Positions 1 through 64,000 of a stretch of 64,000 bases of DNA are shown in pieces; within the stretch, counting starts at the first letter, position 1, and each line of letters opens with the position of its first letter. Origin of the DNA: an uncultured Acidimicrobiales bacterium (GTDB lineage Bacteria; Actinomycetota; Acidimicrobiia; Acidimicrobiales; VFJN01); NCBI GenBank assembly GCA_963778415.1, contig CAVZUI010000013.1, forward strand, positions 67,976-131,975, in the 5' to 3' direction. The position numbers and the translations under genes are program-made. The notes under the pieces are model-generated. The model searched no databases. It saw nothing but the letters and a program-made list of their open reading frames with translations, and was not told the DNA's origin.

Positions 1-641
1 GCGCCCGCGAACGAGAACGGCTGGCCGCCGGGCCCGTTCTCGCGGTAGCCGTTGGCCAGCAGGATGTTGCCCTCGACGTGGCTGCGGCGCGAGCCGGTCT
101 CGAGGTAGATGCCGCTGCTGCCGGCACCGTTCACCTGGTTGCGGCGCAGGGTGACGCCCTCGACGTAGCCGTCGACGAAGATGCCGACCCCGCGCGAGCC
201 GCGGAAGACCGAGTCCTCGACGACGATGTCGGCCGTGCCGTTCTCGTACTCCTGGCCCTGGGGCAGGGTGCGGAAGCCGTCCCGGGTCACGCGGAGGCTG
301 TTGAGGAAGCCCTCGACGGTGCAGTTCCGCACCGTCACGCCGTGCAGCGGGGTGTCGATCGGGGTGGACACCAGGATGCCGCGGCCCCCGGCTCCGGGGG
401 CGCTGCGGATCGTCGCGCCCTGGCAGTCGAGCGTGACCCCGGACGCGGTGATGTCGACGCCCAGCGTGTAGGTGCACTCCGGGTCGAGGTGAGACGTCTC
501 GGTGAGCTGGATCCGCTCGTCCGCCCGGTCGCACCCGATCAGGACCGAGCCCTCTTCGGGGGGCGGCGGCTCGCACGCCACGACGGCGCACAGCGCCAGC
601 ACGGCCGCGCCGCTCGCCATGACCAGCCGCTGCGTGTCCAT
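1..641 (-). CDS. Right-handed parallel beta-helix repeat lipoprotein, N-terminal part only (gene runs off the left edge)
   Basis: Not in the ORF track because there is no stop in the window. Reverse translation from ATG 639-641 gives MDTQRLVMASGAAVLALCAVVACEPPPPEEGS (signal peptide plus lipobox Cys). This is followed by beta-helix-like turns: VTLDCQGATIRS, VTVRNCTVEGF, IVVEDSVFRGSRGVGIFVDGYVEGVTLRRNQV, GIYLETGSRRSHVEGNILL. The frame has GC-rich third positions. Confidence 0.6.
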   Translation of the reverse strand, partial: MDTQRLVMASGAAVLALCAVVACEPPPPEEGSVLIGCDRADERIQLTETSHLDPECTYTLGVDITASGVTLDCQGATIRSAPGAGGRGILVSTPIDTPLHGVTVRNCTVEGFLNSLRVTRDGFRTLPQGQEYENGTADIVVEDSVFRGSRGVGIFVDGYVEGVTLRRNQVNGAGSSGIYLETGSRRSHVEGNILLANGYRENGPGGQPFSFAG

Positions 642-727
642 CTCGCGTCCCCTCGCCTGCGCCCGTGCGGGCCGAATGTAGGCGCGGGCCGCGGGGTGTG
701 GACGATCCGACGCCCACCGGGCCGCGG

Positions 728-1929
728 GTGGCGCTGTGGCAGCCTGGGCCGGTGCGCACCTTCGACGTGGCCGAACGGCGGTCCCGCCTCGTCCGGCGGC
801 ACCACCTGGCGCCCGGTCACAAGGCTCCCGACGTCGAGGCGGCCAGCGACGGCGTGGTCTGCCTGCACGCCACCGACCCGCCGACGGTGTACCTGTCGGC
901 GTGGGCGCGGGTGGACGGTCTGACCCGGACCGACGTCGACAAGGCCCTGTACGCCGATCGCACCCTGGTCAAGCACCTCTGCATGCGCCGGACGCTGTTC
1001 GTGTTCCGGCGCGACCTGTTCGGCGTGACGGTGGCGGCGGCGAGCACCCGGGTGGCCGACCAGGAGCGGCGGCGGCTCGTGAAGGCGGTCGAGAAGGCGG
1101 GGTTCGTCGCCGACGGCGCGGCCTGGCTGCGGGCCGCCGAGGCGGCCACGCTCGAGGCGCTCGACGAGGTGGGCGAGGCGAGCTCGACCGAGCTGCGCAA
1201 CGCGGTCGAGCTCCTGCAGGGGTCGACCGTGTACGCGCCGCACAAGGCCTACGGCGGCAACGTGCCCGTGGGACCGCGCGTGCTGACCTGCCTGTCCGCC
1301 GCGGGCGAGATCGTGCGGGCGTCGAACCGCGGTGGTTGGTACGTGTCGCGGCCCGCCTGGGCGCGGACGTCCACGTGGCTGGGGGAGCAGCCCCCGGTCG
1401 TGCCCGAGCGCGAGGCGCGCGCCGAGCTGGTGCGCCGGTGGCTGTACGCCTTCGGTCCGGCGACCGAGGCCGACCTCAAGTGGTGGATGGGGTCGACGGT
1501 CACGGCGACCCGCGCCGCGCTGGCCGACGTCGGCGCCGTCGAGGTCGATCTTCACGGCGGGCCCGGGGTCGCTCTGGCCGACGACCTCGATCCCGTCGAT
1601 CCGCCCGAACCGTCGGCCGCGTCTGCTGACCGGCCCTCGACCCGACGACGATGGGGTGGTTCGAGCGCGACTGGTACCTCGGTGGACATCGGCCCGTCAT
1701 CTTCGACAGCACCGGGAATGGCGGCACGACGGCCTGGTGGGACGGTCGCATCGTCGGCGGCTGGTGCCAGGCGCCCGACGGTGAGGTGCTCCTCCAGCTC
1801 CTCGACGACGTGGGGGCCGACGCCACGGCGGCGCTCGAGCGGGAGGCGGCCCGCCTCACGACCTGGGTCGACGGGGTCAGGGTCGCGCCGCGCTTCCCGT
1901 CACCCCTGTCGCGGTCGGTCTCGGGGTGA
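728..1929 (+). CDS. Winged-helix DNA-binding protein, YcaQ/AlkZ-like (DUF1006) family; one apparent frameshift near 1610-1650
   Basis: ORF 665-1969 reads FDVAERRSRLVRRHHL...VCLHATDPPTVYLSAWARV...RTLVKHLCMRRTLFVF...ELVRRWLYAFGPATEADLKWWMG, then degenerates after DPPEP. The C-terminus continues in ORF 1651-1929 (MGWFERDWYLGGHRPVIFDSTGNGGTTAWWDGRIVGGW). The start is uncertain (GTG 728 or 752). Confidence 0.8.
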
Positions 1930-1952
1930 CCGGCGATCGTGGCGGCGGGCGG

Positions 1953-2789
1953 TCAGAGCACCGGGTTGAGGTCGTGGTCGGCGAGGGCGCCGAGCGGGCG
2001 TCCGCCGAGCCACGCCCGCCGGTCGACCTCCTGCGCGTCGGTGACCTCGGGCAGGACCCGGGCGCCGTCGGCGAAGTAGATCACGGTCATCACCGGGCGC
2101 AGGTGGTCGGTCGGGTTCGGCCCGGCGCTGTGGAACGTCCACCCGCCGTGGAAGGTGGCGTCACCGGCCGTCAAGCGCGCCGTGGGTGTCGAGCGGGCAG
2201 CTGCTCGCTCGATCAGGGCGGCGAAGCGCGCGGTCGGACTCGTCCGAGATCGCGTACCCGCCGAGGTCGCCGAGCAGGTGGCTGCCGGAGGCGAACGTCA
2301 TCGATCCGATCTCGTCGGGCAGGTCGATGAGCGGCATCCACATCGTGATCGTGCGGTCGGCGTCGAGCGGCCAGTAGTACTGGTCCTGGTGCCACGGCGT
2401 GCGACCGCCGCCGGCCTCCTTGCACAGCGCCTGATCGTGGTAGAGCCGCACCCGCTCGACACCGAGGAGGGCTGCGGCCACTCCGGCGAACCGCGCGGGC
2501 GAACACGAAGCGGCGCGATCCGCTCGTCGACCCGCCACAGGTTGAACGACTGGAGGAAGAGGCTGGCGTAGCTGCCGACCTCGGCCGGCTGGTCCTTGTT
2601 CCAGGCGTGCTCGATGGCGGCGGCCTCGATGATCGGGCGGTAGGCGGCGGCCTCCTCGGGTGACGCGAGGCCGCGCACGACCACGTGCCCGTGCGCGGCG
2701 AACTCGGTGGCCGCGGCCGGGTCGAGGGGGAACGGGTCGTCGAGCGTGGGCACGTCCTGGCGGCCTGCGGGCCGCACCACATCTGCCAT
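1953..2789 (-). CDS. Phytanoyl-CoA dioxygenase (PhyH) family Fe(II)/2-oxoglutarate oxygenase; two apparent frameshifts (~2170, ~2530)
   Basis: Three collinear minus-strand pieces make up the gene. Frame of ORF 2298-3062: MADVVRPAGRQDVPTLDDPFPLDPAAATEFAAHGHVVVRGL...SFNLWRVDERIA. ORF 2161-2538: RVRLYHDQALCKEAGGGRTPWHQDQYYWPLD...MWMPLIDLPDEIGSMTFASGSH. ORF 1953-2174: GDATFHGGWTFHSAGPN. The HxD...H iron-ligand pattern is present. Confidence 0.8.
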
Positions 2790-2846
2790 GGCTCCCCCTC
2801 GACTCGTGGCGTCACGGTACCGGTGCCGACCGGTACGGTCCGGCAG

Positions 2847-4120: not shown

Positions 4121-4966
4121 TCAGAGCGTGTCGCGGTAGGCGTCGACCCACAGCTTCGGGTCGACCGGGACGAGCATCCCGGCGGCCAGGTACATGTCGA
4201 GCTGGAGCAGCAGGGCGTGCCAGGTGGCGGCCAGCTCGGCGTCGGTGCCGATCCCGGCATGGGTCAGGCGGAACACGCTGCCGTGCTCGACGGGCTCGAC
4301 CTCCCAGGTCAGGGGGTCGCCGGCCCGATCGGCGGCCCCCCAGCCCGCCATCGCCGCGGGATCGCTCGTGGCGGCGCGGACGCGGTCGGGGTCGACGTGG
4401 GTCGCCCGCTCCCACCGCAGCGCGCCCCGGCCGTCGGGCCGGCCGAGCTCGGGCCCGATCCGCTCGACGTAGTGGTGGTACAGCGCCAGCCCGTCGTCGC
4501 CCTCGGGCGGGGCGTCGGTCTCGGCCAGCGCCCGCCCGAGCGCGTCGAGGCAGGCGTGCCAGCCCGAGCCGTTCCGGGCCGCCACCGACTGGTGGCTGAG
4601 CAGCTGGGTGAAGACGAGGAGCGTGCCGCCGGCGTCGGCGAGGAGCTCGAAGCGCAGCACCTCGCCGCCCCACGTGAACGAGAAGACCGTGGGCGGGTCG
4701 TAGACCAGGACGTGGCCGCGGAAGGGCGGGCCGTCGTCGCGGGTCGGCTCGCCCGCGGCGCGTGCGGCCGCCCGCTGCGCCTCGTCGTCGAACACGAGCT
4801 CGGCGCCGAGGGTGCGCTCGCCGATCACGGCCGACGGGAACCACGCACCCATCTCCTCGGGGGCGCTGATGGCGCGCCACACGCGCTCGACGGGCTGGTG
4901 GAACCGCCGCTCGAACCGCAGTGCGGGACGGCCGTCGACGGTGACGAGGGTGCCGTCGTTGCTCAT
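4121..4966 (-). CDS. SRPBCC superfamily protein with two AHSA1/START-like domains
   Basis: This is the C-terminal 281 aa of ORF 4121-5275, from MSNDGTLVTVDGRPALRFERRFHQPVERVWRAISAPEEMGAWFP to a second repeat RWERATHVDPDRVRAATSDPAAMAGWG. The ATG at 4964-4966 overlaps the restored ArsR stop by 4 nt (ATGA). Confidence 0.8.
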   Translation of the reverse strand: MSNDGTLVTVDGRPALRFERRFHQPVERVWRAISAPEEMGAWFPSAVIGERTLGAELVFDDEAQRAAARAAGEPTRDDGPPFRGHVLVYDPPTVFSFTWGGEVLRFELLADAGGTLLVFTQLLSHQSVAARNGSGWHACLDALGRALAETDAPPEGDDGLALYHHYVERIGPELGRPDGRGALRWERATHVDPDRVRAATSDPAAMAGWGAADRAGDPLTWEVEPVEHGSVFRLTHAGIGTDAELAATWHALLLQLDMYLAAGMLVPVDPKLWVDAYRDTL

Positions 4967-5275
4967 GGGGTGACCTCCAGGTGGCGCTCGAGGCGGTCGA
5001 ACGACCGGCTCCAGAGCCGTCGGTACGGGGCCGAGCCACTCGTCGATCTCGGCGAGGGGCTCGGGTCGGACGCGGTAGAGGCGCCGCTGCGCGTCGGCCC
5101 GCACGTCGACGAGGCCGGCGTCGCGCAGGACGCGGAGGTGCTTGGACACCGCGGGCTGGCTGATGGAGAGCTGGTCGACGAGGTCGCCGACAGGGCGCTC
5201 GCCCTCGCACAGGAGGTCGAGGATCGCCCTGCGAGTCGGTTCGGCGAGGACGGCGAAGCTCACGTCCCCGAGCAT
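4963..5275 (-). CDS. ArsR/SmtB family transcriptional regulator; one extra base in a G4 run at 5027-5030 fuses it to the downstream gene in the ORF track
   Basis: The N-terminus reads AVLAEPTRRAILDLLCEGERPVGDLVDQLSISQPAVSKHLRVLRDAGLV (wHTH). Removing one base of the homopolymer at 5027-5030 gives EWLGPYRRLWSRSFDRLERHLEVTP-stop, the typical tail of ArsR proteins paired with AHSA1 genes. Confidence 0.85.
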
Positions 5276-5296: not shown

Positions 5297-5384
5297 TCAA
5301 GGCATGTATGGGCCGCGGTTCGGGATGCCGGCTGAGGACTTCCGTCACTTGCCGGGGTCGTCGAGCGTGTCGCAGGCTGACGCC

Positions 5385-6316
5385 ATGGCAGAGATCGTCG
5401 TCGGAGTGGACGGGTCGGAACACGGGGCGGCGGCGCTGCGCTGGGCGGCCCGCGAGGCGGGGTTGCACGGCCACGACCTGGTGGCCGTGCTGGTGTGGGA
5501 CCTGTTCAACCAGCACCACGCGGACGGCAGTCAGCGCTTCGACCCCGACTACGGCGAGGACGCCGCCGACGCCGCCCTGGCCGCGGCGGTCGAGGCGGCC
5601 CTGGGCGCGGAGGCGGCGTCGCAGGTGGTGCGCCGCGCGGTGTGCGACCTGCCGGCTCCGGGCCTGCTGGCCGCGGCGCACGGCGCGGACCTGCTCGTGG
5701 TGGGTGCTCGCGGGCTGGGCGGGTTCCGCGGCCTGCTCCTGGGATCCGTCAGCCAGCAGTGCCTGCACCACGCCGAGGTTCCGATCGCGATCGTGCGCGG
5801 CGACAGCGATGACGGTCCGCACGAGGGGACCCGCGAGCGGGTCGTGGTCGGCGTCGACGGCTCCGACCAGTCGATGGCGGCCCTGCGGTGGGCGCTCGCC
5901 GAGGGGGCGGCGCGCAAGGCCGTGGTGCAGGTGGTGCACGCCTGGACCGCACCCATGATCTACGGGCCCGTGAGCGGCGCGTCGGGGTCGGACGTCGGCG
6001 TCATCGAGGGCGGGGCCCGCCGCATGGTGGACGACATGGTCGACCGGGCGGTCGAGGGAGCGTCCCCTGTCGACGTCGAGCGGACGGCGGTGCCCGGGCG
6101 GGCCGGCGTCGAGCCTGGTCGACGGCGGCGGACGACGCCGATCTCGTCGTCGTGGGCCGGCGTGGCCTCGGAGGTTTCGGTCGCCTCCTCCTCGGATCGG
6201 TGTCCGAGCACGTGGCCCGGCACGCCGGCTGTCCGGTCGTCGTGATCCCACCGGGGACGAGGGCTGACACACGGTCGGACCGCCCACCGGGGGCTCGCCG
6301 CTCGGCGTGGTCTTGA
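5385..6316 (+). CDS. Universal stress protein, tandem Usp domains; one apparent frameshift near 6110
   Basis: The frame of ORF 5142-6245 from MAEIVVGVDGSEHGAAALRWAAREA...LLVVGARGLGGFRGLLLGSVSQQCLHHAEVPIAIV gives domain 1. Domain 2 follows as VVVGVDGSDQSMAALRWAL. The C-terminus continues in ORF 5888-6316 (ADLVVVGRRGLGGFGRLLLGSVSEHVARHAGCPVVVI). Confidence 0.85.
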
Positions 6317-6614
6317 CCGACGGAAGCGCCTGACCAGGCCCAGCACTACGCGGCCAGCGACTACTTCCCGCAGCGCCGGGTGATGGACCGCATCAGCATC
6401 GTGGGGACGCCCGTTCGGGGTCGCCGGACCACCGCACCCACCGCGTCGACACCGACCTGATCGCCGCGAACGCGTGGCGCGGTCGCCCGCCCGGCACGGT
6501 TGTCGCGCGTGGCCCTCTCCGTGAGGCAGAATGGCGAACGCGTGGGGACGTGGATCGGCGGACGCCGTCGCCCCGCCGTGGCGGAGCCAGACAGGGCATG
6601 CGGGAGCGAGGACG

Positions 6615-7177
6615 ATGCGGGACCTCTGGGCGGAACTGAAGCAAGCCGTGGGCGCGGCCCTCGACCGGGTGCACCCCGGGGTGCTGATCGTCACCGGCCT
6701 GGCGGCCGTCGTGATCGTGTTCGGCGCGCTGGGCCTGGCGATGCTCGCGGACGGCGACCGTGGCGTCGAGGACCTCGGGCTCGGCGCTCCGCCGGCCCGG
6801 TCGGCAGGAGGGCGAGGCCGCGTCCGACGACGGCGGGTCGGCCGGCTCGGGCGGCGGGGGCGACTCGCTGTCCGACGGCCTCACGACGCGTGGCGAGGAC
6901 CGATCGGGCGACCCGGGCGGCAGCGTCACGCCGCCGCGGCGGGCCCGGCTGCCGCGACGGGCGCCGCCGCGCCGTCGTCCGCACGCGGACGGGGCCCCGC
7001 CGACGGCGGCGGTCGCCTCCCGGCACCGGTCCCACGACGACCGGCGCCCCCGCGCCGAGCCCACCGCCCCCGCCACGACGGCCACGACCGCGGCCCCCAC
7101 CACGCCGCACGACCGCACCCGATCAGTCGAGCCCCGGCCTGCTCGGCGGTCTGCTCGACGTGCTCGGCCTCGTCTGA
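6615..7177 (+). CDS. Hypothetical membrane-anchored Gly/Pro-rich protein (frame uncertain after ~6800)
   Basis: ATG 6615 gives MRDLWAELKQAVGAALDRVHPGVLIVTGLAAVVIVFGALGLAMLADG, one clear TM helix. Downstream is low-complexity sequence readable only by switching frames (SDDGGSAGSGGGGDSLSDGL; ...DQSSPGLLGGLLDVLGLV-stop at 7177). No family was recognised. Confidence 0.35.
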
Positions 7178-7203: not shown

Positions 7204-7792
7204 TCAGGCGACCGCCGCCGCCGCGTCGGACGCCTCGGGCTGCTCGTCGGTGCGGGCGGTGCGCACGTCGTCGACCGTGACGTTCACCTCGACCACGCGC
7301 AGGCCGAGCATCCGCTGCGTCTTGCGGGCCACGTTGGCCTGCACCTGGCGGGCCACGTCGAGGACGACGTGGCCGAACTCGACCATGATCGTGACGCTGA
7401 TCGCCACGTCGTGGCCCTTGACCTCGGCCTTGACGCCCTGGTCGCCCACGCTTGTTGCCGAGGCCGATGCGCTCGCGGACGCTCTCGACCGCGCGCTCGA
7501 AGTCGCCGCCGAGGTCGGCCACGCCCTCGACCTCCATGGCGGCCAGCCCGGCCACCTTCTCGACCACCTCGTCGGCGATGTGGATGCGGCCCTTGACCTC
7601 GGGCGAGCCCGCCGGCCCCTGGTCGGGGCGGGGCTGCTCTGGTCGAGGTTGCTCGGGCCGCGGCTGTTCCGCCCGGGGTTGCGGGGCGAAGCGCGGTGCG
7701 GTCGCGGCCGCCGGTCCCGGCGCCGGATCGGGGCGCGGCCCGAACGGTGCCGGGCCGTTCTGGCCGGGGGTGTCGGTCGTGAAGTCGGACAT
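7204..7792 (-). CDS. Asp23/Gls24 family envelope stress response protein; one apparent frameshift near 7450
   Basis: ORF 7193-7831 frame from MSDFTTDTPGQNGP...PEVKGRIHIADEVVEKVAGLAAMEVEGVADLGGDFERAVESVRERIGLG. It continues in the ORF 7204-8232 frame: DQGVKAEVKGHDVAISVTIMVEFGHVVLDVARQVQANVARKTQRMLGLRVVEVNVTVDDV. The N-terminus carries EQPRP x3. Confidence 0.85.
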
Positions 7793-8374: not shown

Positions 8375-9425
8375 GTGAGGACCGGCTCGGCAGCCGGCCG
8401 CCAGGCAGCACGTCAAGCGGCGATCCGCGCGGCCGTACCGAACCGCCCCGCGCCCGAGGGTCGTGTGAACGGGCGGGCCGCGTCCGGGCGGTGGGCGGCG
8501 ATCGTCGCCTGCCTGGTGATCGCCGGCGCGGCCGCGTGCGTGCAGGCCGACGTGCCCGAGTCGCTGCCCGGGCCGACGTCGACCACGACGACGACCGCGG
8601 CGCCGACGCCCGAGCCCGACTGCGGGGTTCCCGAGGCGAGCCTGCGCCCGACCGGCCCGGCCACCACCGCGGTGCCGCCGGGCTCGACGATGGCCGAGAT
8701 CCGGGCCCGCGGGCGGCTGCTCGTCGGGGTCGACACCGCCACGTTGCGCCTCTCGAGCGTCGACCCGCAGACAGGCGCTGTTCGAGGGGTTCGACGTGGA
8801 CATCGCCCGCGAGGTGGCCGCCGCCCTGTTCGGCGACCCCGATCGCATCAGCTTCGTCGGCATCCCCAGCAGCGACCGGGTCCAGGCCCTGGTCGACGGG
8901 CGCGTCGACATGGTCGCGGACGTGTTCACCCCCACGTGCAGCCGCCGCGAGGACATCGACTTCTCGACGAACTACTACGACTCGCAGCAGTTGGTGCTGG
9001 TGCGCGACGACGACCCCGCGCGGACGACCGACGACCTCGCCGGCCACACGATCTGCGGCTCGGCCGGTTCGACCACCCTGGCCCGCGTCGCCGAGCTGCC
9101 CGACGTCGAGCCCGTGCCCGCCGCCGAGCGGGCCGACTGCCTGGTGAAGCTGCAGGAGGGCGAGGTCGACGGCATGTCGACCAACGACACGATCCTCGTC
9201 GGCTTCCGCGCCCAGGACCCCAACCTGCGATTCCTCGAGGGCTCGCTCAACCGGGAGCCCACCGCCATCGGCCTGCCGCGCGACCGGCCCGAGTGGGTGC
9301 GCTACGTCAACGCGGTGCTCGACCAGGTACGGACCTCGGGGCGGTGGGTCGAGCTGTACGACCTCTGGCTGGCTGACCTGCTCGGGCCGACCGCCGGCCC
9401 GCCTCCGCCCGTGTACGTCGATTGA
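8375..9425 (+). CDS. Amino-acid (glutamate/polar) ABC transporter substrate-binding lipoprotein; one apparent frameshift near 8775
   Basis: ORF 8375-9376 N-terminus has a signal peptide with lipobox ([16 protein letters not shown]) and [26 protein letters not shown]. The remainder is in ORF 8796-9425: [23 protein letters not shown]...[32 protein letters not shown]...[11 protein letters not shown]. The start codon is uncertain. Confidence 0.85.
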
Positions 9426-11984
9426 CGCTGCGCACCGTGCCCCGCACCCTGGCGGACCACCTGGCGGAGCTCGGCGCCCGCCCCGACCCCGACGCCGTGC
9501 TCGACGCGTTCACGACGTGGGCCGACGGACGCGGCCTCGCGCTGTACCCGGCGCAGGAGGAGGCGGTCCTCGAGATCCTCGGCGGCGCCAACGTCATCCT
9601 CGGCACGCCCACCGGGTCGGGGAAGTCCCTGGTGGCGCTGGCCGCCCACGCCGCCGCCCTGTCCGCCGGGCGCCGCACCTTCTACACGGCGCCGATCAAG
9701 GCGCTCGTGTCGGAGAAGTTCTTCGACCTCGTGCACGAGCTGGGGTCGGACCACGTCGGCATGCTCACCGGCGACGCCGCCGTCAACGCCGACGCCCCGG
9801 TCATCTGCTGCACGGCCGAGATCCTCGCCAACCTGGCGCTGCGTGCCGGCGAGCGGGCCGACGTCGGCCAGGTGGTGATGGACGAGTTCCACTACTACGC
9901 CGACCCCGACCGCGGCTGGGCGTGGCAGGTGCCGTTGCTCGACGCTGCCCCAGGCCCAGTTCGTGCTGATGTCCGCCACGCTGGGCGACACCCGCCGCTT
10001 CGAGGTCGAGCTCAGCGAGCGGACGGGCCGCACGACGGCCGCCGTCCGCAACGCCACCCGACCGGTGCCGCTCGACTACGAGTACCGCCACACCGCCCTG
10101 CACGAGACCATCGACACGCTGCTGGCGACCGACCGGGTGCCGGTCTACGTCGTGCACTTCACCCAGCGCGAGGCCGTCGAGCGGGCCCAGTCGCTGATGA
10201 GCGTCAACATGTGCTCGCGGGCCGAGAAGGACGCCATCGGGGCGGCCATCGGCGAGTTCCGGTTCGGGCCGGGGTTCGGGCGGGCGCTCAGCCGGTTCGT
10301 GCGCCACGGCATCGGCGTCCACCACGCCGGCATGCTCCCGAAGTACCGCCGGCTGGTCGAGCGGCTGGCGCAGGAGGGGCACCTCAAGGTCATCTGCGGC
10401 ACCGACACCCTCGGCGTGGGGATCAACGTGCCGATCCGCACCGTGCTCTTCACCCAGCTCTGCAAGTACGACGGCACGTCGTCCCGGCTGCTCTCGGCCC
10501 GCGAGTTCCACCAGATCGCCGGCCGGGCCGGCCGCGCCGGGTACGACACGGTCGGCTACGCGTGGGCCCAGGCCCCCGAGCACGTGATCGACAACGAGCG
10601 CGCCGTCGCCAAGGCCGGGGACGACGCCAAGAAGAAGCGCAAGATCGTCAAGCGCAAGCCCCCGACCCGGGGCTACGTGCCGTGGAGCGAGGACACGTTC
10701 ACCAAGCTGGCCGCAGCGCCGCCCGAGCCGCTCACGTCCAGCTTCACCGTGTCGCACGCCATGCTGCTCAACGTGCTCGACCGGCCCGGCGACGGCTGCG
10801 GCGCCATGCGTCGCCTGCTCCTCGACAACCACGACCCGCGGGCCCGCCAGCGCCAGCACATCCGCCGGGCCATCGCCATGTACCGGTCGCTGCTGCGCTC
10901 TGGCGTGGTCGAGCGGCTCGACACGCCCGACGCCGACGACCGCCTCGTGCGCGTGACCATCGACCTGCAGGCCGACTTCGCCCTGAACCAGCCGCTGTCG
11001 CCGTTCGTGCTCGAGGCCATCACCCACCTCGACCCCGAGTCCGACACCTACGCCCTCGACGTGCTCTCGATCGTCGAGTCGGTGCTCGAGAACCCGGGCG
11101 TCGTGATCGCCGCCCAGCTCGATCGCCTGCGCACCGAGACCATCGAGCGGCTCAAGCGGGAAGGGGTCGAGTACGAGGAGCGCATGGCCGAGCTCGACAA
11201 GCTCGAGCACCCCAAGCCGCTGCGCGACTTCACCTACGGCCTGTTCGACGCGTACGCGACCGAGCACCCGTGGGTCGTCGACCACACGATCCGGCCCAAG
11301 TCGGTGGCCCGCGACCTGTACGAGCGGGCCATGACGTTCACCGACTACATCGCGTTCTACGGGCTGGCCCGGTCGGAGGGTCTGGTCCTGCGCTACCTGA
11401 CGGACGCCTACAAGGGCCTCGTCCAGAACGTGCCCGAGGACACCAAGACCGACGACCTGCTCGACCTCACCGAGTGGCTGGGCGAGCTGGTGCGCCAGGT
11501 CGACTCGAGCCTGCTCGACGAGTGGGAGACGTTGCGCCACCCCGACGTCGACGACGAGGTGGCGGCGCCGGCCCGCCCGTCGCTGGCCGACGAGGGCGCG
11601 GCGCGGCGGGGCGTGACCGCCAACGAGCGGGCCTTCCGCGTCATGGTGCGCAACGAGCTGTTCCAGTGGGTCGAGCTGCTGGCACGGCGGGCCTACGCCG
11701 ACCTCACCGAGCGCCTGCCGGGCACCGCCTGGTCGGCCGGCTCGCTGGCGGCGGCGATGGCGCCGTACTGGGAGCGGCACGAGGCGGTCGGCATCGGGCC
11801 CGCGGCGCGCGGCCCCGACCTGTTCCAGGTGGCCGAGGCGGCGGGGGAGTGGACGGTGCGGCAGGCGCTCGACGACCCGGACGCGGAGCGGGACTGGGCG
11901 ATCTCCGCTCGCGTGGACCTCGAGGCCTCCGACGAGGAGGGGCGGGCGGTCGTGGTGCTGGAGGGCGTGTCCGCCGGCGGCTGA
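9422..11984 (+). CDS. DEAD/DEAH-box (Ski2-like) helicase with DUF3516-type C-terminal region; one apparent frameshift near 9955
   Basis: The N-terminus in the ORF 9422 frame has [32 protein letters not shown] (motif I) and VVMDEFHYY (motif II). The gene continues in ORF 9963-11984 with LMSATLGD (motif III), [38 protein letters not shown] and [12 protein letters not shown] (motif VI), then a long helical C-terminal domain. Confidence 0.9.
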
Positions 11985-13376: not shown

Positions 13377-13469
13377 GGCGCCGGACGGTAGCGCGCCCCG
13401 TCCGCCTCGGGACGGCCGTGTCGCGCCCGCGTCGGCCCGGGCGCGGCGGCGATCAGTAGGGTCCGCCCC

Positions 13470-18855: not shown

Positions 18856-18961
18856 GACCGGTCGGTCATCCTACGGAGCAGGCCTTCCGGGAGGACCGGG
18901 AGTTCGAACACCCGCATTAGAACGTCCGACGCGTGACCCAGGTCACGGCTAGGGTGCCGCC

Positions 18962-20207: not shown

Positions 20208-20230
20208 CGGCGGGCAAGCCGCCCGTGCGG

Positions 20231-20677: not shown

Positions 20678-20737
20678 CCGCGGCACGCTACCGCCACAGA
20701 CATCCACTTCAAGCGAGCTTCACCTTCCCTCCGACGG

Positions 20738-20788: not shown

Positions 20789-20853
20789 GTGGAACGGGTG
20801 GTACAGCCGGTAGCTTTCGGCACACCCACCTGACGCTGGACGCGGGAGGACGC

Positions 20854-22456: not shown

Positions 22457-22473
22457 CGGCGCACGTCGGTGAC

Positions 22474-50881: not shown

Positions 50882-51899
50882 CTAGCGGCTCGGCCTCGGT
50901 GCCACGGCGTCGGCGAACGACCGCAGCTCGCGTTCGATGTCGGTGCCGCCGGGCTGGAACGCGACCTCGGTCACGCCGGCCTCGGCCAGCGCCGCGACGC
51001 GGCCTCCGACGTCGGCGGCGGCGCCGGTGAGGGTGAAGGCCGGGATCATGGCCGCCGCGCCGGCGTCCAGCGCGGTGCGGTCGCGGTGCGCTCAGCTCGA
51101 CGAGGTGGCCCTCGTGGGTGGCGAGGTGCCGTCGGTCGTGGGGGAGCGCCTCGAGCGCGGCCCGCCACTCGGGCCCGCCGGGGAGGTTGTCGACCGCGGC
51201 GGCGCCGCCCCGCTCGTACAGCCCGTGCAGGGCGACCGCCATCGCCGGGCCGGCCGCCTCGATGACCCGGGGCGCGTCGGCGGCCTCGCCCTCGTCGAGC
51301 ACCGTGCCGAAGGTCAGGAGCGCGTGCCATCCCCCGGCTGCGGCGGGGTTGGGCAGGCCGGCCGAGAACATGCCGTCGGCCAGCTCGCGGGCGACCGCGG
51401 TGCCACGCGGGCCGTCGGCGCCGAGCAGGATCGGCACGTCGATCGGCCGCGGCGCTCCGAACCCGTCGGGGTGGATCATCCGGACGGGCCGCCCCTCCCA
51501 CGTCGTCTCGTCGCCGCGCAGCAGGGCGCGCAGCGCGATCACGTAGGCGCGCACGTCGTCCCAGCGCATGGCCCGCTGGCCGAGCACGTGGCGGCCGGTG
51601 AACCCGGCGCCGAGCGTGACCGCCACGCGTCCGGGCGCGAGGTCGGCGAGCGTGGCGATGGCGGCCGCGGTGACCATCGGGTGGCGGAGGCTCGGCACGA
51701 TGACCGCCGGGCCGAGCCCGATCGTGCTGGTGCGCTCGGCGCAGCGGGCCAGGCTCATCCACACGTCGTGGTAGAGGGCGGGCGAGTCGTAGAGCCAGGC
51801 CCGGCCGTAGCCGAGCTCCTCGGCCAGGGCGACGTGATCGGGGGTGTCCTTTCCCGGCGGGAAGGCGGCGGAGAGGGTGAGCGAGCGAGCCATCAGCAC
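50882..51899 (-). CDS. LLM-class (luciferase-like) F420-dependent oxidoreductase; one apparent frameshift near 51095
   Basis: ORF 50772-51899: PDHVALAEELGYGRAWLYDSPALYHDVWMSLARCAERTSTIGLGPAVIVPSLRHPMVTAAAIATLADLAPGRVAVTLGAGFTG. The C-terminus is recovered in another frame: RDRTALDAGAAAMIPAFTLTGAAADVGGRVAALAEAGVTEVAFQPGG...stop at 50882. Confidence 0.85.
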
Positions 51900-56238: not shown

Positions 56239-57628
56239 TCAGCCCGGGGCCGCGGTCAGCCGGGGCCCGGTCAGGTCGACGTGCGAGCCGAGCACCTCCA
56301 TCACCTGCGCCGCCAGGCGGTCGGCTCCGTCCTCGGTGAGGTGGATGCCGTCGTCGAGGCGGACGTCGACGGGGGTCGCCCGCCGGGTCGGGGAGGGTGT
56401 CCGCGAACGCCCCCGAGGCGTCGGCCAGGCTGGCGCCGGCGTCCACGGTGACGATCCACGGCCGGGAGGCGGCCTCGGCCTCGACGGCCTGGGTCACGAC
56501 CGCCATGCGGGCGGCGTAGTCGGGGTCCCGCATCGGCGGGAGCAGGACCCACAGCACGAGGCGGTCGTCGGCCCGGAGGTCGTCCATCACCTCGGCCGAC
56601 CCGCCGCCGGTACTCCTCGGACCAGCGCGGGTCGGCCACCTCGGGGATCGGCGTCCCGTCGTCGAGGACGATGCCCTGGGCGTCGTTGACGCCGAAGACC
56701 ACGACGAGCACCTCGGGGTCGTCGGCCGCGAGGTCGGCCTGCAGGGCGCCGGGCCAGTCGAAGTAGTCGGGACGGGTCAGGCCGGAGGCCATCTCGTAGT
56801 GGACGGACGGGGCGACCAGCCCGGTGGACCCCGCGGCGTCGGCCAGGGCGGGCCCGAACACCTGGGCCATCGAATCGCCCCCGACCCACAGCCGCAGGGG
56901 ATCGTCGGCCGTGGGCGCCCGCAGCTCGACGGCCGCGGGTGCCGCCTCGGCTCCCGCCTCGTCGGGCGCGGTCGAGGCGGTGGTCTCGCGGGCGCCGTCG
57001 GAGGCGGGCCCACGCCGGCTGTCGCGGGTGGTCGGGGCGGGATCCTGGGCGTCGTCGTCGGCATCGTCGTCGCCCACGACCCGATCGGCGACCTGGCGGA
57101 TGCGGTGGAGCTGGAGCGCGTGGCTCACGTCCTGCACGGGGTGCCACACGGCGAGGGCGCGGTCGCGGGCCCGGCCGGGGGCCTGGCGCTCGGCCCGGGC
57201 CACGAGCGCGTCGGCGTTCACGAGCATCGCCAGCACGAGCGACGCCACGATGAGGACCAGGACCCGCCCCGCCGGTTGCCGCCCCACGACCAGGTCGTCA
57301 CCGCCGTCCGCGGCATCGCCGCCCGGCTGGACGTCCGTCCTGATCTGGGCCTCGAGTCGGGCGTGGTCATCGGCTTCGGGGTCGCCGTCGACGTCGCGGC
57401 CGGCCCCGCGGCGGCCGCCACCGCGCCGCCGGTCCGGCCGGCGTCGTCCTCGGCGTCGCCCGGTCGGTCGGGCGACTGGTCGCGGGCGGTGCGCGCCCGG
57501 CTGCGTGCGTGCCGAGCCCGCCGCCGGCTGCCCAGCACGGCCAGGTCCTCGGACTCGGTCGGGTCGTCACCGGGCCAGCCGGGAGGGACGGGAGCGCGGG
57601 GCGGGCCGGTCCCGGTGGGAGGCGTCAT
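56239..57628 (-). CDS. SGNH/GDSL-like hydrolase (DUF459-type) with N-terminal disordered region and one TM helix; about three apparent frameshifts
   Basis: ORF 56301-57287: [22 protein letters not shown]...[20 protein letters not shown] (GDS block)...[33 protein letters not shown]. Then ORF 56183-56590 ([23 protein letters not shown]), then [22 protein letters not shown] (DxxH block) with stop 56239. The N-terminal extension to ATG 57628 (ORF 57218-57628) is tentative. Confidence 0.7.
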
Positions 57629-57653: not shown

Positions 57654-59128
57654 TCAGAACGGGAGGTAGGCGTAGGGGAGCGTGCCGTCGGGGCCCATGG
57701 CGGACACGAGCGTCAGGACCAGCGCCAGGACCGCCACCTGCGCGACGGGCGCCAGCGTGGTGAAGCGGGCCCGCAGCCCGAGGGTGAGATCGGGGGGCAC
57801 GAACTGGACCGCGATCGCCGCCACCACCACGACGACGGCGAGGGCGGGGACGAGGGCGACGTCGCCAGGGGCCACGGTCACGATCCGGCCCAGCACCTCG
57901 AGGGCGCTGCCCACCGAGTCGGCGCGGTAGAAGACCCAGGCGACGACGACGAGGTTGAACGTGAGCGCCCATCGCAGCACGGCGCCCACCCGCGTCGCCG
58001 GGGCGACCTCGGCCGCGTCGCGGCCGTCGCCGCCCCGGGCCCGGGCCGACACGGCCCGCTCGCCCGACGAGGTAGGCCCCGTGCAGGGCGCCCCAGACCA
58101 CGAACGGCCAGCCGGCGCCGTACCAGAGGGCCCCGGTGACCATGGTGAGGACGAGGTTCCGGTACGTCGTCCTCCCGCCGCGCCGGTTGCCGCCGAGCGG
58201 GACGTAGACGTAGTCGCGGAGCCAGTGGGACACCGGCGTGTTCCACCGGTCCCAGAACTCGCGCACCGACAGGGCGGAGTAGGGCGCGTCGAACGGGCGC
58301 GGGTACTCGATCCCGAGCAGCAGCGCGCAGCCCACGGCGATGTCGGTCAGCCCCGAGAACCCGGCGTAGATCTGCACCGCGAAGGCGTACAGGGCGGCGG
58401 CGAGAGCCCACCCGCTGGCGGCGCCGGGGTCGGCGAAGGCGGGGTCGACCAGCTCGGACCCCAGGTAGCCGGCGATCGACGACGGCCTTGAACAGGCCGA
58501 CGCCGACCAGCACGAACGCCTCGGTGGCGGGCACCCGCCGGGGGTCGGGCCGCTCGTGGAACTGCGGCACGAGCTCGTCGACCCGCACGGGTGGGCCGGC
58601 GACGAGGTGCGGGAAGAAGCTGAGGTACAGCAGCAGGTCGCCCCACGCGACCGGCTCGACGTCACCCCGCCCGACGTCGACGACGTAGCTGATGGCCTGC
58701 AGGGTGACGATCGACAGTCCCACCGGGACCAGCAGGCCCAGGGTCGGGGCGGTGGCCGACAGGCCGAGGGCGTCGAACACGTCGGTGACCGACTCGAGGA
58801 AGAACCCGTTGTAGGCGAACAGCCCGAGGACGGCGACGTCGACCGCCACGGCCGCGGCCACCCACCGGCGGCTGGCGGGCGTCGGATCGCCGAAGTCGAG
58901 GGCCCGGGCCGCCGCGGTCGCCAGCAGCCCGTTCACCACCGCCGACGCCACGATCAGCAGCGCGAAGCGGACGTCGACCCAGGCGCAGAAGTAGAGGCTG
59001 ACCGCCACCATCGTCGCCCGCCACAGCAGGTCGTGGGGACGCAGCAGCCAGTTCAGCGTGAAGGCGGCGACGAAGAAGACCGCGAAGGCTGCGGTGGGGA
59101 ACGGCATCGAGATCCCCAGGGGAGACAA
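57654..59128 (-). CDS. MBOAT family O-acyltransferase (AlgI/DltB-like); two apparent frameshifts (~58490, ~58070)
   Basis: ORF 57878-59128 ([21 protein letters not shown]...[14 protein letters not shown]...[26 protein letters not shown]), ORF 57625-58665 frame ([31 protein letters not shown]...[19 protein letters not shown], conserved His) and ORF 57654-58052 (tail TM helices). The start is 59128 or, more likely, 59107 (MPFPT). Confidence 0.88.
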
Positions 59129-59705: not shown

Positions 59706-60892
59706 GTGCGTTCCTCGACCCGCCGAACCATCCTCTGGGCGTTGGCCCTCGTCCTCGGGCTGGTGCTCGTCGGCGTGGCCTACGTCCGGGGCGGCGACGG
59801 CAGCGGGTCGGCCGACACCGCACCCGACTCACCCAGCCCACAGGTGCCCGACGATCCCGGTGAGGGCTGCGGCGAGGCGGCCACCACCGACCCCGAGGAC
59901 CTGGCGGTCGACCGGACCCTGGCGCGGTGCGAGGCGGGTGCGCCCGCGGCACAGCCGCTGGCCCGGGCCGCGACCGTGCGGGTGGCGATCACCGAGCGCA
60001 CCGAGACGGTGTCCCCGGTCCTGGTCGCCGACGCCCTCGACGAGTTCACGGCCGAGAACCTCGCCGTCGAGATCATCGACCTACCCGGCGGCGAGGCCTA
60101 CGCGCGCCTCCAGCGCGGCGAGGTCGACGTGGTCGTCGGTGGCATGGACGGCCCGTTCTTCGACGCGGTCGACGGCGGGTTCGGGGCGCGGATCGTGCTC
60201 GGCGGTCAGGTCGCTCGCCGGCCGAGCGACCTCGACACCGCCCAGGCCGGCTTCTGGATCCGCCGGGGGCTGATCAACGAGGCAGGTGAGTGGGACAACG
60301 TCGAGGGCCAGACCGTCCTGGTCCCCGGCGGGCTGACGGCGGCGGCCACGCTGCCCATCGACACGCTGCTGTCCCAACACGCGCTGGGCGCCAACTCGAT
60401 CGACATCGTTCCGGCGACGTCGCACCAGGCGGCCGAGACGTTGCACGCCGCCGCCTCCGGGGGCGCCTGGCTGGCCGAGCCCGACGCCGTCGAGGCCGCG
60501 GCCGACGACGCGCTGATGCTGGTGGCCACCACGCCCGGCAGCGAGTCGATCGACGGGACCGTCTTCGGCCCCCGGTTGCTCGGGCCCGAGCGGGCCGTCG
60601 GGCTGGCGTACGTCCGGGCCGTGATCCGCACGATCAACACGCACATGCCCGACGGGTACGAAGAGGATGCGCTGGAGGCCGTGTCCCAGGCGCTGGACGT
60701 GGACGAAGAGGTGGTGGCCGACGGGCCCGGCGCCGCTGTTCGACTGGGAGGTCCGCGTCGGGCACGACCACCCGGGTGCAGGACACGCTGACCGCGCTCG
60801 GCGGCGTCGGCTACGAGCGCGTGATCGGCGAGGACCTCCTCGTCGACCGCTCACTGGCGGCCGACGTCGTGAGCGCCGCCGACCCGGGCTGA
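59706..60892 (+). CDS. ABC transporter substrate-binding protein (NMT1/SsuA-like fold); one apparent frameshift near 60735
   Basis: ORF 59706-60791: signal/TM (RRTILWALALVLGLVLVGVAYV), VRVAITERTETVSPVLVADALDEFTAENLAVEIIDLPGGEAYARLQRGEVDVVVGG...GQTVLVPGGLTAAATLPIDTLL. The tail is in ORF 60290-60892 (VQDTLTALGGVGYERVIGEDLLVDRSL). The family assignment is moderate. Confidence 0.65.
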
Positions 60893-60946: not shown

Positions 60947-62194
60947 TCACCCGTCGGCGTCACCCGACAACCGACCAGCGACGAGCGACGCCCGTTCGGG
61001 CGCTGCGCTCAGCCGCTGGCAGCCCAGGTCCAGGCGTACGTCCGGGTCCTCGCACGCCCGGGCCGCGCCCCCGAGGGCCAGCGGAGCGAACGTGTCGACC
61101 ATCACCGCCAGCTCGTCGGTGGACTCGGCGCCGAGCGACGCCTCGACGCTGCCCGGCTGCGGCCCGTGGGTGAACCCTCCGGGGTGCAGGCTGATCGACC
61201 CGGCCCCGATGCCGGCGCCCTTGCGGCTGGTGAAGTCGCCGGCGCAGTAGAACAGCACCTCGTCGCTGTCGACGTTGGCGTGGTTGTACGGCGTGGGCAC
61301 GGCGTCGGGGTGGTAGTCGAGCTTGCGCGGCACGAAGCTGCACACGACGAAGCGGGGCCCGGCGAAGGTCTGGTGGACCGGCGGGGGCTGGTGGACGCGC
61401 CCGGTGATCGGCTCGAAGTCGTGGATCGACAGGCGGTACGGGTAGAGGCACCCGTCCCACCCGACGACGTCGAACGGGTGGTGCGCGTACCGGTACCGGG
61501 TGAGGCCCGACCGCTGGCGCACGAGCACCTCGACGCCGTCCGCTCCGGGGTCGTCGTCGACGAGGTGGAGCTGTTCGGGTCCGTGGAGGTCGCGCTCGCA
61601 GTACGGGCTGTGCTCGAGGAACTGCCCCGTGGCGGACAGGTAGCGCTCCGGCGGGCCGACGTGGCCGCGCGCCTCGACCACGAGCGCGGCCACCGGCTCG
61701 TCGCCGGCCGCGCCGGTCGGGACCCAGCGGTGGGTCGTCCCGGTGGGCACGACGACGTAGTCGCCGGCGCGGCAGTCGAGGGTCCCGAACGACGACTCCA
61801 GCCGGGCCGTGCCGGTGCGCAGGTAGACGATCTCGTCGCCGGTCGCGTTCCGGTAGAGGCCACTGGGCGTCGTGGGGTGCGCGACCGCCAGGCGCACGTC
61901 GTCGTTGGCCAGCAGGACGCGGCGACCGGTGACCAGGTCGCCGCCGGCCTCCAGCTCGGCGGTGCGCAGGTGGCGAGGCAGCAGCGGCTCGTTGGCCTGC
62001 AGGTCGTCGTCGGGCGCGGCGATCGGGTCGGCGCCGAGCAGTGCGGTGGGCGGCCGGCGGTGGTAGAGCAGCGCCGACGACGCCGAGAAGCCCTCGGTCC
62101 CCATGAGCTCCTCGGCGTACAGGTGCCCGTCGGGGGCACGGAACTGGGTGTGCCGCTTGGGCGGCACCTCACCGACGCGGCGGTAGTACGGCAC
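60947..62194 (-). CDS. hmgA: Homogentisate 1,2-dioxygenase; probable frameshift near 61040 (likely true stop 61009)
   Basis: ORF 60947-62404 frame from GTG 62194 (RBS GAGGAGG): VPYYRRVGEVPPKRHTQFRAPDGHLYAEELMGTEGFSASSALLYHRRPPT...YRNATGDEIVYLRTG...DYVVVPTGTTHRW...HHPFDVVGWDGCLYPY...HQPPPVHQTF...YNHANVDSDEVLFY...SISLHPGGFTHGPQPG. An alternative frame at the end gives DPDYAWTWAASG-stop. Confidence 0.92.
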   Translation of the reverse strand: MPYYRRVGEVPPKRHTQFRAPDGHLYAEELMGTEGFSASSALLYHRRPPTALLGADPIAAPDDDLQANEPLLPRHLRTAELEAGGDLVTGRRVLLANDDVRLAVAHPTTPSGLYRNATGDEIVYLRTGTARLESSFGTLDCRAGDYVVVPTGTTHRWVPTGAAGDEPVAALVVEARGHVGPPERYLSATGQFLEHSPYCERDLHGPEQLHLVDDDPGADGVEVLVRQRSGLTRYRYAHHPFDVVGWDGCLYPYRLSIHDFEPITGRVHQPPPVHQTFAGPRFVVCSFVPRKLDYHPDAVPTPYNHANVDSDEVLFYCAGDFTSRKGAGIGAGSISLHPGGFTHGPQPGSVEASLGAESTDELAVMVDTFAPLALGGAARACEDPDVRLDLGCQRLSAAPERASLVAGRLSGDADG

Positions 62195-62858: not shown

Positions 62859-63016
62859 CGTGCGGCTCCGAACGTCGGCACGCCTCGGGGCGGGATTCTC
62901 GCCACACGACCGGGCGTGTCGCCGGTACTCTCTGTGTCAGTTCGGTGAACAACGGCACACATTGCCGACGTCTCCCGATACCCGGACACTAACCTCCGCT
63001 CCCCGGAGGTGCCCGT

Positions 63017-63784
63017 TTGCCCACAGCCCTCAGGGCGGTCCTCCCGCATTTGTTCGACGATGCAGGACTGTTCCCGCCCGCCAAGCTCCCCATGGCCGAG
63101 GCCCTGGCCGCGCACCAGCGCGCGCTCGCCGGTCCGCATCGCGAGGTCGTCGGCCCGTTCCTGTGCCCGGCGACGCGCCTCGACGAGCTCGACGCGTGCG
63201 TCGCCTCCGGCGCGGTCCGCCCGACGGCGCTCGGGATCATCGGCTACGCCGGGCAGCTCGACTGGCGGCGGCCGATGGCCGTGCGCGGGGTGGTGCAGGC
63301 CGAGGCCCCCATCGGCGCAGGCATGCCCGTGCCACCCGGTCGGATCGTCCGCTACCTCGAGCTGCCCCACCGTGGCGCCATCGGCCCGGCCCTCGACGAG
63401 GTGGTGCGGGCGAGCGCCCGTGCCAAGGTGCGGTGCGGCGGCCTGACCGACGATGCGATCCCGACCGTCGAGTGGCTCGCCGAGGTGCTCGTCGGCTGCG
63501 TCGAGCGAGGCCTGCAGCTCAAGGCGACCGCCGGCCTGCACCACGCGTTCCGCGCCGGGCGGCGTGAGCCGCCGCGCCACGGCTTCGTCAACCTGCTGGC
63601 CGCGGCGGCCGTGGCCCGGTCCCGTGCGTCGGTCGGCGAGGTGGCCGCGGTCCTGGCCGCCGAGGAGGCCGACGCGAGCGACCTCCCGGGCCGCGTGGCC
63701 GGTGCCCGCGAGCTGCTCACCTCGATCGGGACGTGCTCGATCGACGAGCCCCTCGGCGAGCTGGCCGTGCGGGGCCTGTTGTGA
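63017..63784 (+). CDS. Conserved hypothetical protein (255 aa) immediately upstream of fahA
   Basis: Intact ORF with a TTG start: LRAVLPHLFDDAGLFPPAKLPMAEALAAHQRALAGPHREVVGPFLCPATRLDELDA...RAKVRCGGLTDDAIPTVEWLAEVLVGCVERGLQLKATAGLHHAF...HGFVNLLAAAA...SIGTCSIDEPLGEL. Composition is protein-like and third positions are GC-rich. No family was recognised. Confidence 0.75.
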   Translation: MPTALRAVLPHLFDDAGLFPPAKLPMAEALAAHQRALAGPHREVVGPFLCPATRLDELDACVASGAVRPTALGIIGYAGQLDWRRPMAVRGVVQAEAPIGAGMPVPPGRIVRYLELPHRGAIGPALDEVVRASARAKVRCGGLTDDAIPTVEWLAEVLVGCVERGLQLKATAGLHHAFRAGRREPPRHGFVNLLAAAAVARSRASVGEVAAVLAAEEADASDLPGRVAGARELLTSIGTCSIDEPLGELAVRGLL

Positions 63785-63809
63785 GCGGACGCGAGGTGCG
63801 GGGCCCGCG

Positions 63810-64000
63810 GTGACCGCGCTCCGGTCGTGGGTGGCCGGTGCCGACGGCTCGGGGTTCCCCGCCGAGCACCTGCCGTACGGCGTCGTGTCGACCGCGGGCG
63901 GACCACCGCGGGTCGGCGTGCGGATCGGCGATCACGTGCTCGACCTCGCCCGGCTGGCCGACGACGGCGTGGCCGGCCTGGGCGGCCTGCTGGAGGGCAC
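63810..64000 (+). CDS. fahA: Fumarylacetoacetase, N-terminal part (gene runs off the right edge)
   Basis: GTG 63810: VTALRSWVAGADGSGFPAEHLPYGVVSTAGGPPRVGVRIGDHVLDLARLADDGVAGLGGLLEG. This matches the FAH N-terminal domain pattern (FP..NLPYGVFS...PR.GVAIGD.ILDL). Confidence 0.85.
   Translation, partial: MTALRSWVAGADGSGFPAEHLPYGVVSTAGGPPRVGVRIGDHVLDLARLADDGVAGLGGLLEG

Follow-up and report, generated by a model that had tools for sequence, protein, structure and literature searches.

Metagenome-assembled genomes (MAGs) built from Nanopore reads only carry single-base insertions and deletions (indels) that break conserved open reading frames (ORFs) at a rate set by the assembly and its coverage, and the locus described here resembles them in both respects. 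Such frameshift errors are reported to be more common in soil assemblies made from Oxford Nanopore Technologies (ONT) reads than in HiFi assemblies (PMC13087279), and they are usually ascribed to homopolymers, which is a reason for short-read or reference polishing (PMC9262707). The Microflora Danica (MFD) long-read catalogue is Nanopore-only, assembled with Flye and corrected with one round of Medaka 1.8.0 and no short-read polishing (PMC12313526). The locus also has a likeness to artefacts of strain or haplotype collapse, in which events fall at positions variable between populations and the consensus holds both alleles. Pseudogenes of reductive evolution, of the Mycobacterium leprae type, share with it the large fraction of frame-disrupted genes. 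Here we describe a stretch of 64,000 nucleotides (hereafter the window; contig CAVZUI010000013.1, positions 67,976 to 131,975, assembly GCA_963778415.1) from an uncultured Acidimicrobiales bacterium, in which frame disruption is pervasive. We conclude with considerable confidence that the disruptions are consensus errors of a long-read metagenome assembly, most likely a Nanopore-only one made with Flye and Medaka, that they are mainly of a non-homopolymer kind for which we propose a strain-collapse mechanism, and that they are not mutations of the organism.

Compared to the literature on errors in Nanopore MAGs, the window stands apart in its GC content (74% overall), in that 77% of its insertions extend no run, and in a ratio of insertions to deletions of about 8:1. 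It differs from decay of the M. leprae type in having no nonsense codons, no deletion bias, no relaxation of constraint, and lesions that its close relatives do not share.

Frame switches and private indels in the window and its relatives

The GC content is 70-78% along the whole window. Strand calls from a three-phase GC plot were too noisy, and a codon-usage Viterbi procedure was used in its place, with seven states (six coding frames plus non-coding), trained on the codon usage of intact genes and retrained on its own path. This divided the window into 194 segments and returned 73 same-strand frame switches without a stop codon at the junction, 65 of them +1 (one extra base) and 8 of them +2/-1. 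Two of the switches, at 28323 and 41965, are probably gene boundaries, leaving about 71, and about 35 of some 65 genes are affected. An earlier reading of the DNA from its letters alone (the sequence-only reading) had proposed 60-70 events, about one per kb, in roughly 35 of 65 genes, which is right for frame switches; its range of one to six switches per gene is too low for the first cytochrome P450 gene, which has at least 8. All the examples it had named were found disrupted by us as well (both P450s, both ABC permeases, the phospho-sugar mutase, add, deoA, cdd, hrpA, corA, the radical SAM gene and the MBOAT gene).

Ten related loci (L001-L010) were obtained from protein look-ups and one genome scan. 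L001, L002 and L003 correspond to window 10-32 kb (87-94% DNA identity), L005-L008 to 27.5-50 kb (78-97% identity), L004 to 47-59 kb (83-91% identity), and L009 and L010 to 0-17 kb. An indel was scored as private to the window when at least two relatives covered the site and the window differed by it from every one of them, or from every one except a single relative. When eight related contigs (83-97% DNA identity) were projected onto window coordinates, 71 private indels were obtained in 12-50 kb, and 66 have a length that is no multiple of 3 (53 of type +1 and 7 of type -1). The Viterbi states assign 51 of these 66 frame-changing events to coding sequence and the remaining 15 to non-coding sequence. 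The dominant error is one extra base, mostly G or C, occurring about 1.7 times per kb.

The two approaches agreed closely. Between 12.1 and 50.1 kb, 40 of the 46 Viterbi switches lay within a few nucleotides of a private indel, and the other six were, by inspection, two gene boundaries and four +1 insertions against at least two relatives; the strict rule had missed these four true events, being misled by errors that the relatives carry nearby. Beyond 12-50 kb, L009, L010 and L004 confirm most Viterbi sites within their coverage. Pervasive frame disruption, as first claimed from the letters, is therefore confirmed by codon usage and, independently, by alignment to relatives. Counted as bases gained or lost, the errors number closer to 100, more than the switch count, because close compensating insertions and intergenic events give no frame switch.

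The relatives carry errors of their own. L003, L005 and L009 are parts of one contig (contig_64469) of the uncultured Acidimicrobiales bacterium isolate MFD04850.bin.1.220, and L010 belongs to MFD05454.bin.1.266; the other long-read loci share the Flye-like contig_N style of name and sample accessions in the range ERZ250394xx-ERZ250395xx and were therefore treated as belonging to the same Microflora Danica project. A protein 100% identical to the thiolase of the window, and likewise its GH5 glycosidase, is encoded on a contig of 175,142 nt present in both NCBI and ENA, which matches this pattern of source. L004 comes from an unrelated NCBI MAG in which all called genes are intact, and it showed 0 private frameshifting indels over about 3 kb. 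In a four-way alignment of 16.4 kb, private indels that are not multiples of 3 numbered 25 in the window, 28 in L003, 7 in L001 and 2 in L002. Per kb, private frameshifting indels amounted to 0.15 in L005, 0.27 in L002, 0.52 in L001, 0.95 in L003, 1.66 in L006, 3.13 in L008 and 5.0 in L007. The highest and lowest rates within this one project are thus about 30-fold apart, and the error sites differ between assemblies; even within a single contig, L003 and L005 show a 6-fold difference. Where divergence is similar, the error rate follows the assembly and not evolutionary distance. The excess of insertions is shared, with +1:-1 ratios of 74:15, 51:6, 28:3 and 10:0 in relatives and 53:7 in the window. 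The Microflora Danica contigs of L006, L007 and L008, one of them 1.44 Mb long, have +1-biased private indels at 1.7-5 per kb, and many genes are split in their deposited gene calls.

Context of the inserted bases and a proposed strain-collapse mechanism

Sequence context was analysed for 48 +1 insertions resolved in local multiple alignments. The inserted base was unlike both neighbours, extending no run, in 37 of the 48 (77%), with GG to GCG and CC to CGC as typical changes; runs of 2 and runs of 3 held 5 insertions each and a run of 5 held one, so that only 6 were in runs of at least 3. The adjoining column was polymorphic among relatives for 33 of the 48 insertions. In 28 (58%), two alleles known from the relatives were placed in tandem, as at 43195 (TG; relatives have T, G or A), 27716 (GC; G, T or C), 46138 (CCCGG; CCCG or CCGG) and 17025 (GA; G or A). 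As a control, random bases with matched base frequencies were inserted at 255 sites no more than 500 bp from real events and taken through the identical pipeline. Among the 238 that were resolved, 29% adjoined a polymorphic column and 13% produced the two-allele arrangement, significantly less than the real insertions (Fisher p = 4e-7 and p = 1.4e-10, respectively). A two-allele excess was also seen with other contigs as the focal sequence: 64% vs 15% in L008 (p = 1e-10), 34% vs 11% in L007 (p = 4e-5) and 30% vs 13% in L006 (p = 0.05).

The ArsR-family regulator (4967-5275, reverse strand) is a further two-allele case. Its frame switch falls at 5029/5030, and compared to L009 and L010 there is one extra base at about 5031-5033; the stitched protein matches HTH_5/HTH_20. 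The sequence-only reading had placed the extra base in the G4 run at 5027-5030, where both L009 and L010 also read GGGG; at about 5032-5033, the relatives read C (L009) or G (L010), and the window reads CG. Deleting any single nearby base restores the ArsR frame, and the G4 reconstruction therefore worked too. With the extra base in place, the ArsR frame continues into the next gene and gives a fused ORF of 384 aa (4121-5275), and this ArsR-SRPBCC fusion exists as one ORF only because of the base at about 5032.

These observations suggest a mechanism. Enrichment at variable sites points to a putative mixture of strains in the source sample, and reads from two or more co-occurring strains would have been collapsed into one contig. 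At a strain-variable site with alleles X and Y, a consensus model that penalises a missing base less than a substitution would favour the string XY, which could then explain each X-read or Y-read as XY minus one base. The remaining events, about 40%, would probably be ordinary low-coverage consensus noise. The two-allele signature would explain the insertion bias, the non-homopolymer context and the enrichment at variable sites, none of which a homopolymer model explains.

Random noise of a low-coverage consensus, biased towards insertions by the polisher and unrelated to strain mixture, could also be proposed, the association with variable sites then being secondary. The two-allele signature is missing in about 40% of the window's insertions and in about two thirds of those in L007, the 30-fold spread in rate between contigs is what coverage would give, and the catalogue paper connects errors with lower coverage (PMC12313526). 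In the window and in L008, however, the signature is 4-5 times more common than in nearby simulated insertions, and pure noise should not know the alleles that exist in other samples. We therefore regard noise as a sole cause as unlikely.

Classic Nanopore miscounts of homopolymer length in G/C runs are a good deal less probable. Homopolymer miscounts are mostly deletions, yet insertions and deletions stand at 53:7 here. The tabulation of inserted bases against G/C homopolymers, proposed with the sequence-only reading as a check, did not bear out the G/C-run expectation: 11 of the 48 insertions do extend short runs, but the other 37 are flanked by differing bases on both sides. The inserted base is G or C in 40 of the 48, an excess that merely mirrors a sequence of 74% GC. 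At ArsR, neither relative differs from the window in the G4 run, and it is a C/G variable site 2-3 nt from the run that holds the extra base. Although miscounting of runs is the textbook Nanopore consensus error (PMC9262707), the catalogue paper (PMC12313526) places such problems in genomes of low GC content with runs longer than 6, runs that the window lacks.

Several points weigh against the proposed reading of the errors. About 40% of the resolved +1 insertions lack the two-allele signature, and a second error process must therefore contribute. That a consensus step such as that of Flye or Medaka would gain likelihood by emitting both alleles is our reasoning from the pattern, and the sequencing platform of the window itself is deduced from its relatives and the error signature. 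The catalogue was screened for frameshifts by coding density, and its errors were linked to low-coverage, low-GC, homopolymer-rich genomes (PMC12313526), whereas the window is rich in GC and its error spectrum is a different one. Events are over-dispersed along the window, with an index of 1.7 for bins of 1 kb (p = 0.005) and of 2.4 for bins of 2 kb (p = 2e-5). Event density per kb showed no correlation with polymorphism among the relatives (rho = -0.01), and its correlation with how far the window has diverged from the closest relative was only weak (rho = 0.26, p = 0.13). The hot spots, namely the first P450 gene and the two ABC permease genes, are real and are not accounted for by diversity or divergence. 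Relatives sampled elsewhere are, however, a weak stand-in for the diversity inside the source sample.

Constraint on the disrupted genes and consequences for annotation

Substitutions private to the window were compared between broken and intact genes. In broken genes, 214, 34 and 27 fell at codon positions 3, 1 and 2, respectively (78% third), and 202 were synonymous and 73 non-synonymous; in intact genes the counts were 209, 52 and 42, with 199 synonymous and 104 non-synonymous. The pattern in broken genes indicates purifying selection over essentially the whole history of the lineage. Frame-stitched proteins are free of stop codons and match Pfam models over nearly the full profile, except for the two P450s (partial matches), and neither nonsense codons nor large deletions were found in broken genes among the stitched proteins of the Viterbi segments. 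Premature stops together with relaxed selection had been named beforehand as what would speak for real decay; no internal stops were present, and 73% of substitutions in broken genes were synonymous.

Genuine recent large-scale pseudogenisation in the source population is accordingly very improbable. The window lineage has an indel-to-substitution ratio of roughly 1:10, which would not be out of place in neutral sequence, and decay is judged here from assembled sequence. The broken genes are, however, as constrained as the intact ones or more so (73% vs 66% synonymous on the window branch), with zero nonsense codons and zero large deletions. Real bacterial gene decay is described as deletion-biased, and the insertion bias seen here is opposite to it. 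Decay would also have to be recent and independent in seven related loci from six long-read contigs, at different sites and at 0.15-5 events per kb, and no mutational process predicts enrichment, with both alleles present, at sites that are polymorphic elsewhere. Recoding that would restore the frames (programmed +1 ribosomal frameshifting, transcriptional slippage or RNA editing) fits the nearly uniform +1 type and the intact stitched proteins, but its probability is negligible: none of the sites recurs in relatives at 93-97% identity, whose own sites lie at other positions, the local alignments showed no apparent slippery or stimulatory motif in common, and 15 of the 66 events lie outside coding sequence, programmed frameshifting being excluded by this lack of conservation and by the non-coding events.

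Together, these results support the assembly-indel explanation first offered from the letters alone, through private and +1-biased indels, persisting selection and the Nanopore-only provenance of the relatives. The organism almost certainly carries these genes in intact form, and the frame disruptions are without biological meaning. Out-of-frame stops are rare at 74% GC, and shifted genes therefore look like long chimeric or fused ORFs and not like truncations; such ORFs would be missed by gene-calling and coding-density checks, which we infer to hold for the catalogue's screen as well. About half of the predicted proteins from the contig are chimeric, truncated or fused, the 384-aa ArsR-SRPBCC protein being an example. 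Pseudogene counts, domain-fusion calls, dN/dS estimates or protein-family seeds taken from this contig would be wrong, and the earlier caution about pseudogene and fused-ORF calls stands, none of them being trustworthy here.

The spectrum of +1, non-homopolymer errors at strain-variable sites is common to six other contigs of the same catalogue. Homopolymer-aware polishing and quality control by coding density would therefore not catch it, and strain-aware or short-read polishing is needed. Our literature search found no description of a +1 outcome with both alleles emitted for Flye/Medaka metagenomes, only general statements on ONT frameshifts; the two-allele pattern may perhaps be new, as a point of method and not of biology. 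We give about even chances to the broader proposition that Nanopore-only Flye/Medaka assemblies of strain-mixed populations write single-nucleotide polymorphisms as both alleles side by side, an under-described systematic +1 artefact. If this is true, many public long-read MAGs, including species representatives used in taxonomy, could each carry hundreds to thousands of non-homopolymer frameshifts.

Intact and disrupted genes along the window

Four stretches that had been reported free of events (20.2-23.6, 31.8-34.3, 35.7-37.0 and 38.2-39.8 kb) indeed contain zero coding events. In the first (20205-23622) there is no coding frame switch, and the MerR, ChsH2-like, thiolase (21254-22456), SnoaL and PEMT genes are intact, the thiolase having its best named homologues in Acidimicrobiales MAGs; private indels are only intergenic or at a gene junction (20779, 21250, 22477-22560 and 23083). 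Just 3' of the thiolase stop codon, at about 22474-22499, lies a GC-rich perfect inverted repeat, GTGCTGCCGGCC-CC-GGCCGGCAGCAC, which is terminator-like in look and of which 8 bases are absent from the relatives. In the second stretch (31834-34308, reverse) the aldehyde dehydrogenase (500 aa) and DeoC genes are intact, with zero events between 31699 and 34387. Identity to L005 is 96.5-97% over 28.2-38.1 kb and then about 93% over 38.1-50.1 kb, where insertions are about three times more numerous than in 28.2-38.1 kb; the step in identity could reflect recombination mosaicism or a chimeric strain consensus.

In the first 12 kb, the shifts are mostly placed by comparison with L009 and L010. An AlkZ-like gene (750-1878, forward) has +1 insertions at about 1622 and 1629 against both, and its stitched protein matches Pfam AlkZ-like. 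The PhyH-like dioxygenase gene (1954-2765, reverse), outside the coverage of the relatives, has Viterbi junctions at 2162-2231 and 2490-2515 and a stitched match to Pfam PhyH (3-212 of 213); its segment (window 1933-2793) is missing from L009, a presence/absence difference. The first cytochrome P450 gene (2833-4111, forward) is the densest hot spot, with Viterbi +1 switches at 2980, 3088, 3217, 3436, 3690, 3929, 4000 and 4041 and, against L009, 16 insertions and 2 deletions (net +14); the stitched protein has a partial Pfam p450 match and intact ExxR and FGVGAHFCLG motifs. The ArsR gene follows, and the window has two separate pairs of an ArsR-family regulator and an SRPBCC/AHSA1 gene (4122-5275 and 28745-29482, both reverse).

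A tandem universal stress protein gene (5377-6247, forward) is shifted at its C-terminus, by +1 at about 6096 and 6123 against L009 and L010 (Viterbi switch 6111), and a small hypothetical gene (6610-6930, forward) is shifted by +1 at about 6806-6808 against the same two loci (Viterbi switch 6774). These loci also place a +1 at 7448 in the Asp23-family gene (7205-7639, reverse; Viterbi switch 7449; Pfam Asp23 2-108 of 108 when stitched) and one at about 8777 in the solute-binding protein gene (8499-9422, forward; Viterbi switch 8770; Pfam match to SBP_bac_3). The DEAD/DUF3516 helicase gene (9423-11981, forward) has a +1 at 9941 against L009, where the Viterbi switch also falls.

Further along, the dienelactone hydrolase gene (12567-13382, reverse) has a +1 at 12929 against 3/3 relatives, with a Viterbi switch at the same position. 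The second P450 gene (13459-14598, forward) has +1 insertions at 13706, 14001, 14134 and 14271, with which Viterbi agrees at all four, and a -1 at 14597; its stitched protein has a partial Pfam p450 match and an intact FGSGAHFCLG motif. The HrpA helicase gene (15216-18858, reverse) carries two shifts, +1 at 17021-17025 and at 18688 against 3/3 relatives, and its orthologue is intact in L002 and L003 (1221 aa). A beta-lactamase-family gene (18954-20204, forward) has a +1 at 19409-19415; the orthologue in L002 and L003 is 414 aa.

Downstream of the first clean stretch, a hypothetical 134-aa gene (23711-24088, reverse) has a +1 at 23991-23996 (Viterbi switch 23992), and an HTH_31 regulator gene (24200-24954, forward) is shifted near its C-terminus by a +1 at 24946 against 3/3 relatives. 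The radical SAM gene (25090-27053, reverse) contains an intein and has +1 insertions at 25413, 26047 and 26782-26792 (Viterbi switches 25408, 26062 and 26794). The intein carries a LAGLIDADG_3 homing-endonuclease domain, and its insertion point coincides exactly with the CxxxCxxC iron-sulfur motif. In the stitched protein the sequence is ...GCTHACSY/CLSGDTPV...GVVSHN/CFARPTH... (junctions marked by slashes), a placement that would make the +1 extein Cys the third cysteine of the cluster. Orthologues in L001 and L002 are 700 aa long, with the matching Pfam pair, and L002 has about 880 additional bases (its positions 13758-14641) between the HTH_31 and radical SAM genes.

A TetR regulator gene (27156-27690, reverse) has +1 insertions at 27314 and 27533, with Viterbi switches at both, and a GNAT acetyltransferase gene (27781-28323, forward) has one at 28231-28233 against 7/7 relatives. 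In corA (29936-30902, reverse) the +1 insertions are at 30496-30498 and 30645-30646, and the stitched protein matches Pfam CorA over 3-290 of 292. The aldehyde-dehydrogenase-like gene of 292 aa (30961-31833, reverse) has a +1 at 31698-31699 against 6/6 relatives, and a second AlkZ-like gene (34396-35539, forward) has +1 insertions at about 35005-35011 and at 35115-35123 (Viterbi switches 35011 and 35118).

Adenosine deaminase (add; 37017-38062, reverse) has +1 insertions at 37273, 37942-37946, about 37976 and 38057, its A_deaminase match (1-326 of 330) extending across four frame pieces. Pyrimidine-nucleoside phosphorylase (deoA; 40193-41485, reverse) has them at 40706, 40791, 40805 and 41297, with three Pfam domains complete when stitched, and cytidine deaminase (cdd; 41660-41965, reverse; Pfam dCMP_cyt_deam_1) at 41673-41677 and 41812-41816. 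The first ABC permease gene (41966-43314, reverse) has six events, a +2 at 42267-42283, +1 at 42759, 43053, 43195 and 43261, and a -1 at 43231; the second (43315-44417, reverse) has seven +1 shifts, at 43323, 43571, 43624, 43670, 43810, 43993 and 44060. When stitched, they match Pfam BPD_transp_2 over 2-269 and 4-268 of 269, respectively. The ABC ATPase gene (44446-46030, reverse) has +1 insertions at 44578 and 44914-44920 against 4/4 relatives, the Bmp lipoprotein gene (46105-47237, reverse) has them at its 3' end (46138-46140 and 46162-46170), and the purine nucleoside phosphorylase gene (47540-48348, forward) at its 5' end (47559-47564 and 47594-47598). Five +1 shifts were placed in the phospho-sugar mutase gene (48356-50054, forward), at 48968, 49023-49036, about 49108, 49386-49396 and 49650-49663, and PGM_PMM domains I-IV were all found in the stitched protein.

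In the last part of the window, comparison with L004 places a +1 at 51088 in the luciferase-like monooxygenase gene (50901-51899, reverse; Viterbi switch 51091; Bac_luciferase 21-314 of 314 when stitched), at 56376 and 56596 in a DUF459/GDSL lipase-like gene (56246-57568, reverse; Viterbi switches 56374, 56609 and 57404), and at 58066 and 58476 in the MBOAT gene (57655-59119, reverse; Viterbi switches 58065 and 58477; Pfam MBOAT). A hypothetical secreted protein gene (59725-60883, forward), outside the coverage of the relatives, has Viterbi switches near its 3' end at 60733 and 60766. The homogentisate dioxygenase ORF extends about 60 nt past the end of coding potential (60947-61008), and its C-terminal tail, which looks out of frame, may mark a further undetected shift. 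A GH5 glycosidase is also encoded in the window.

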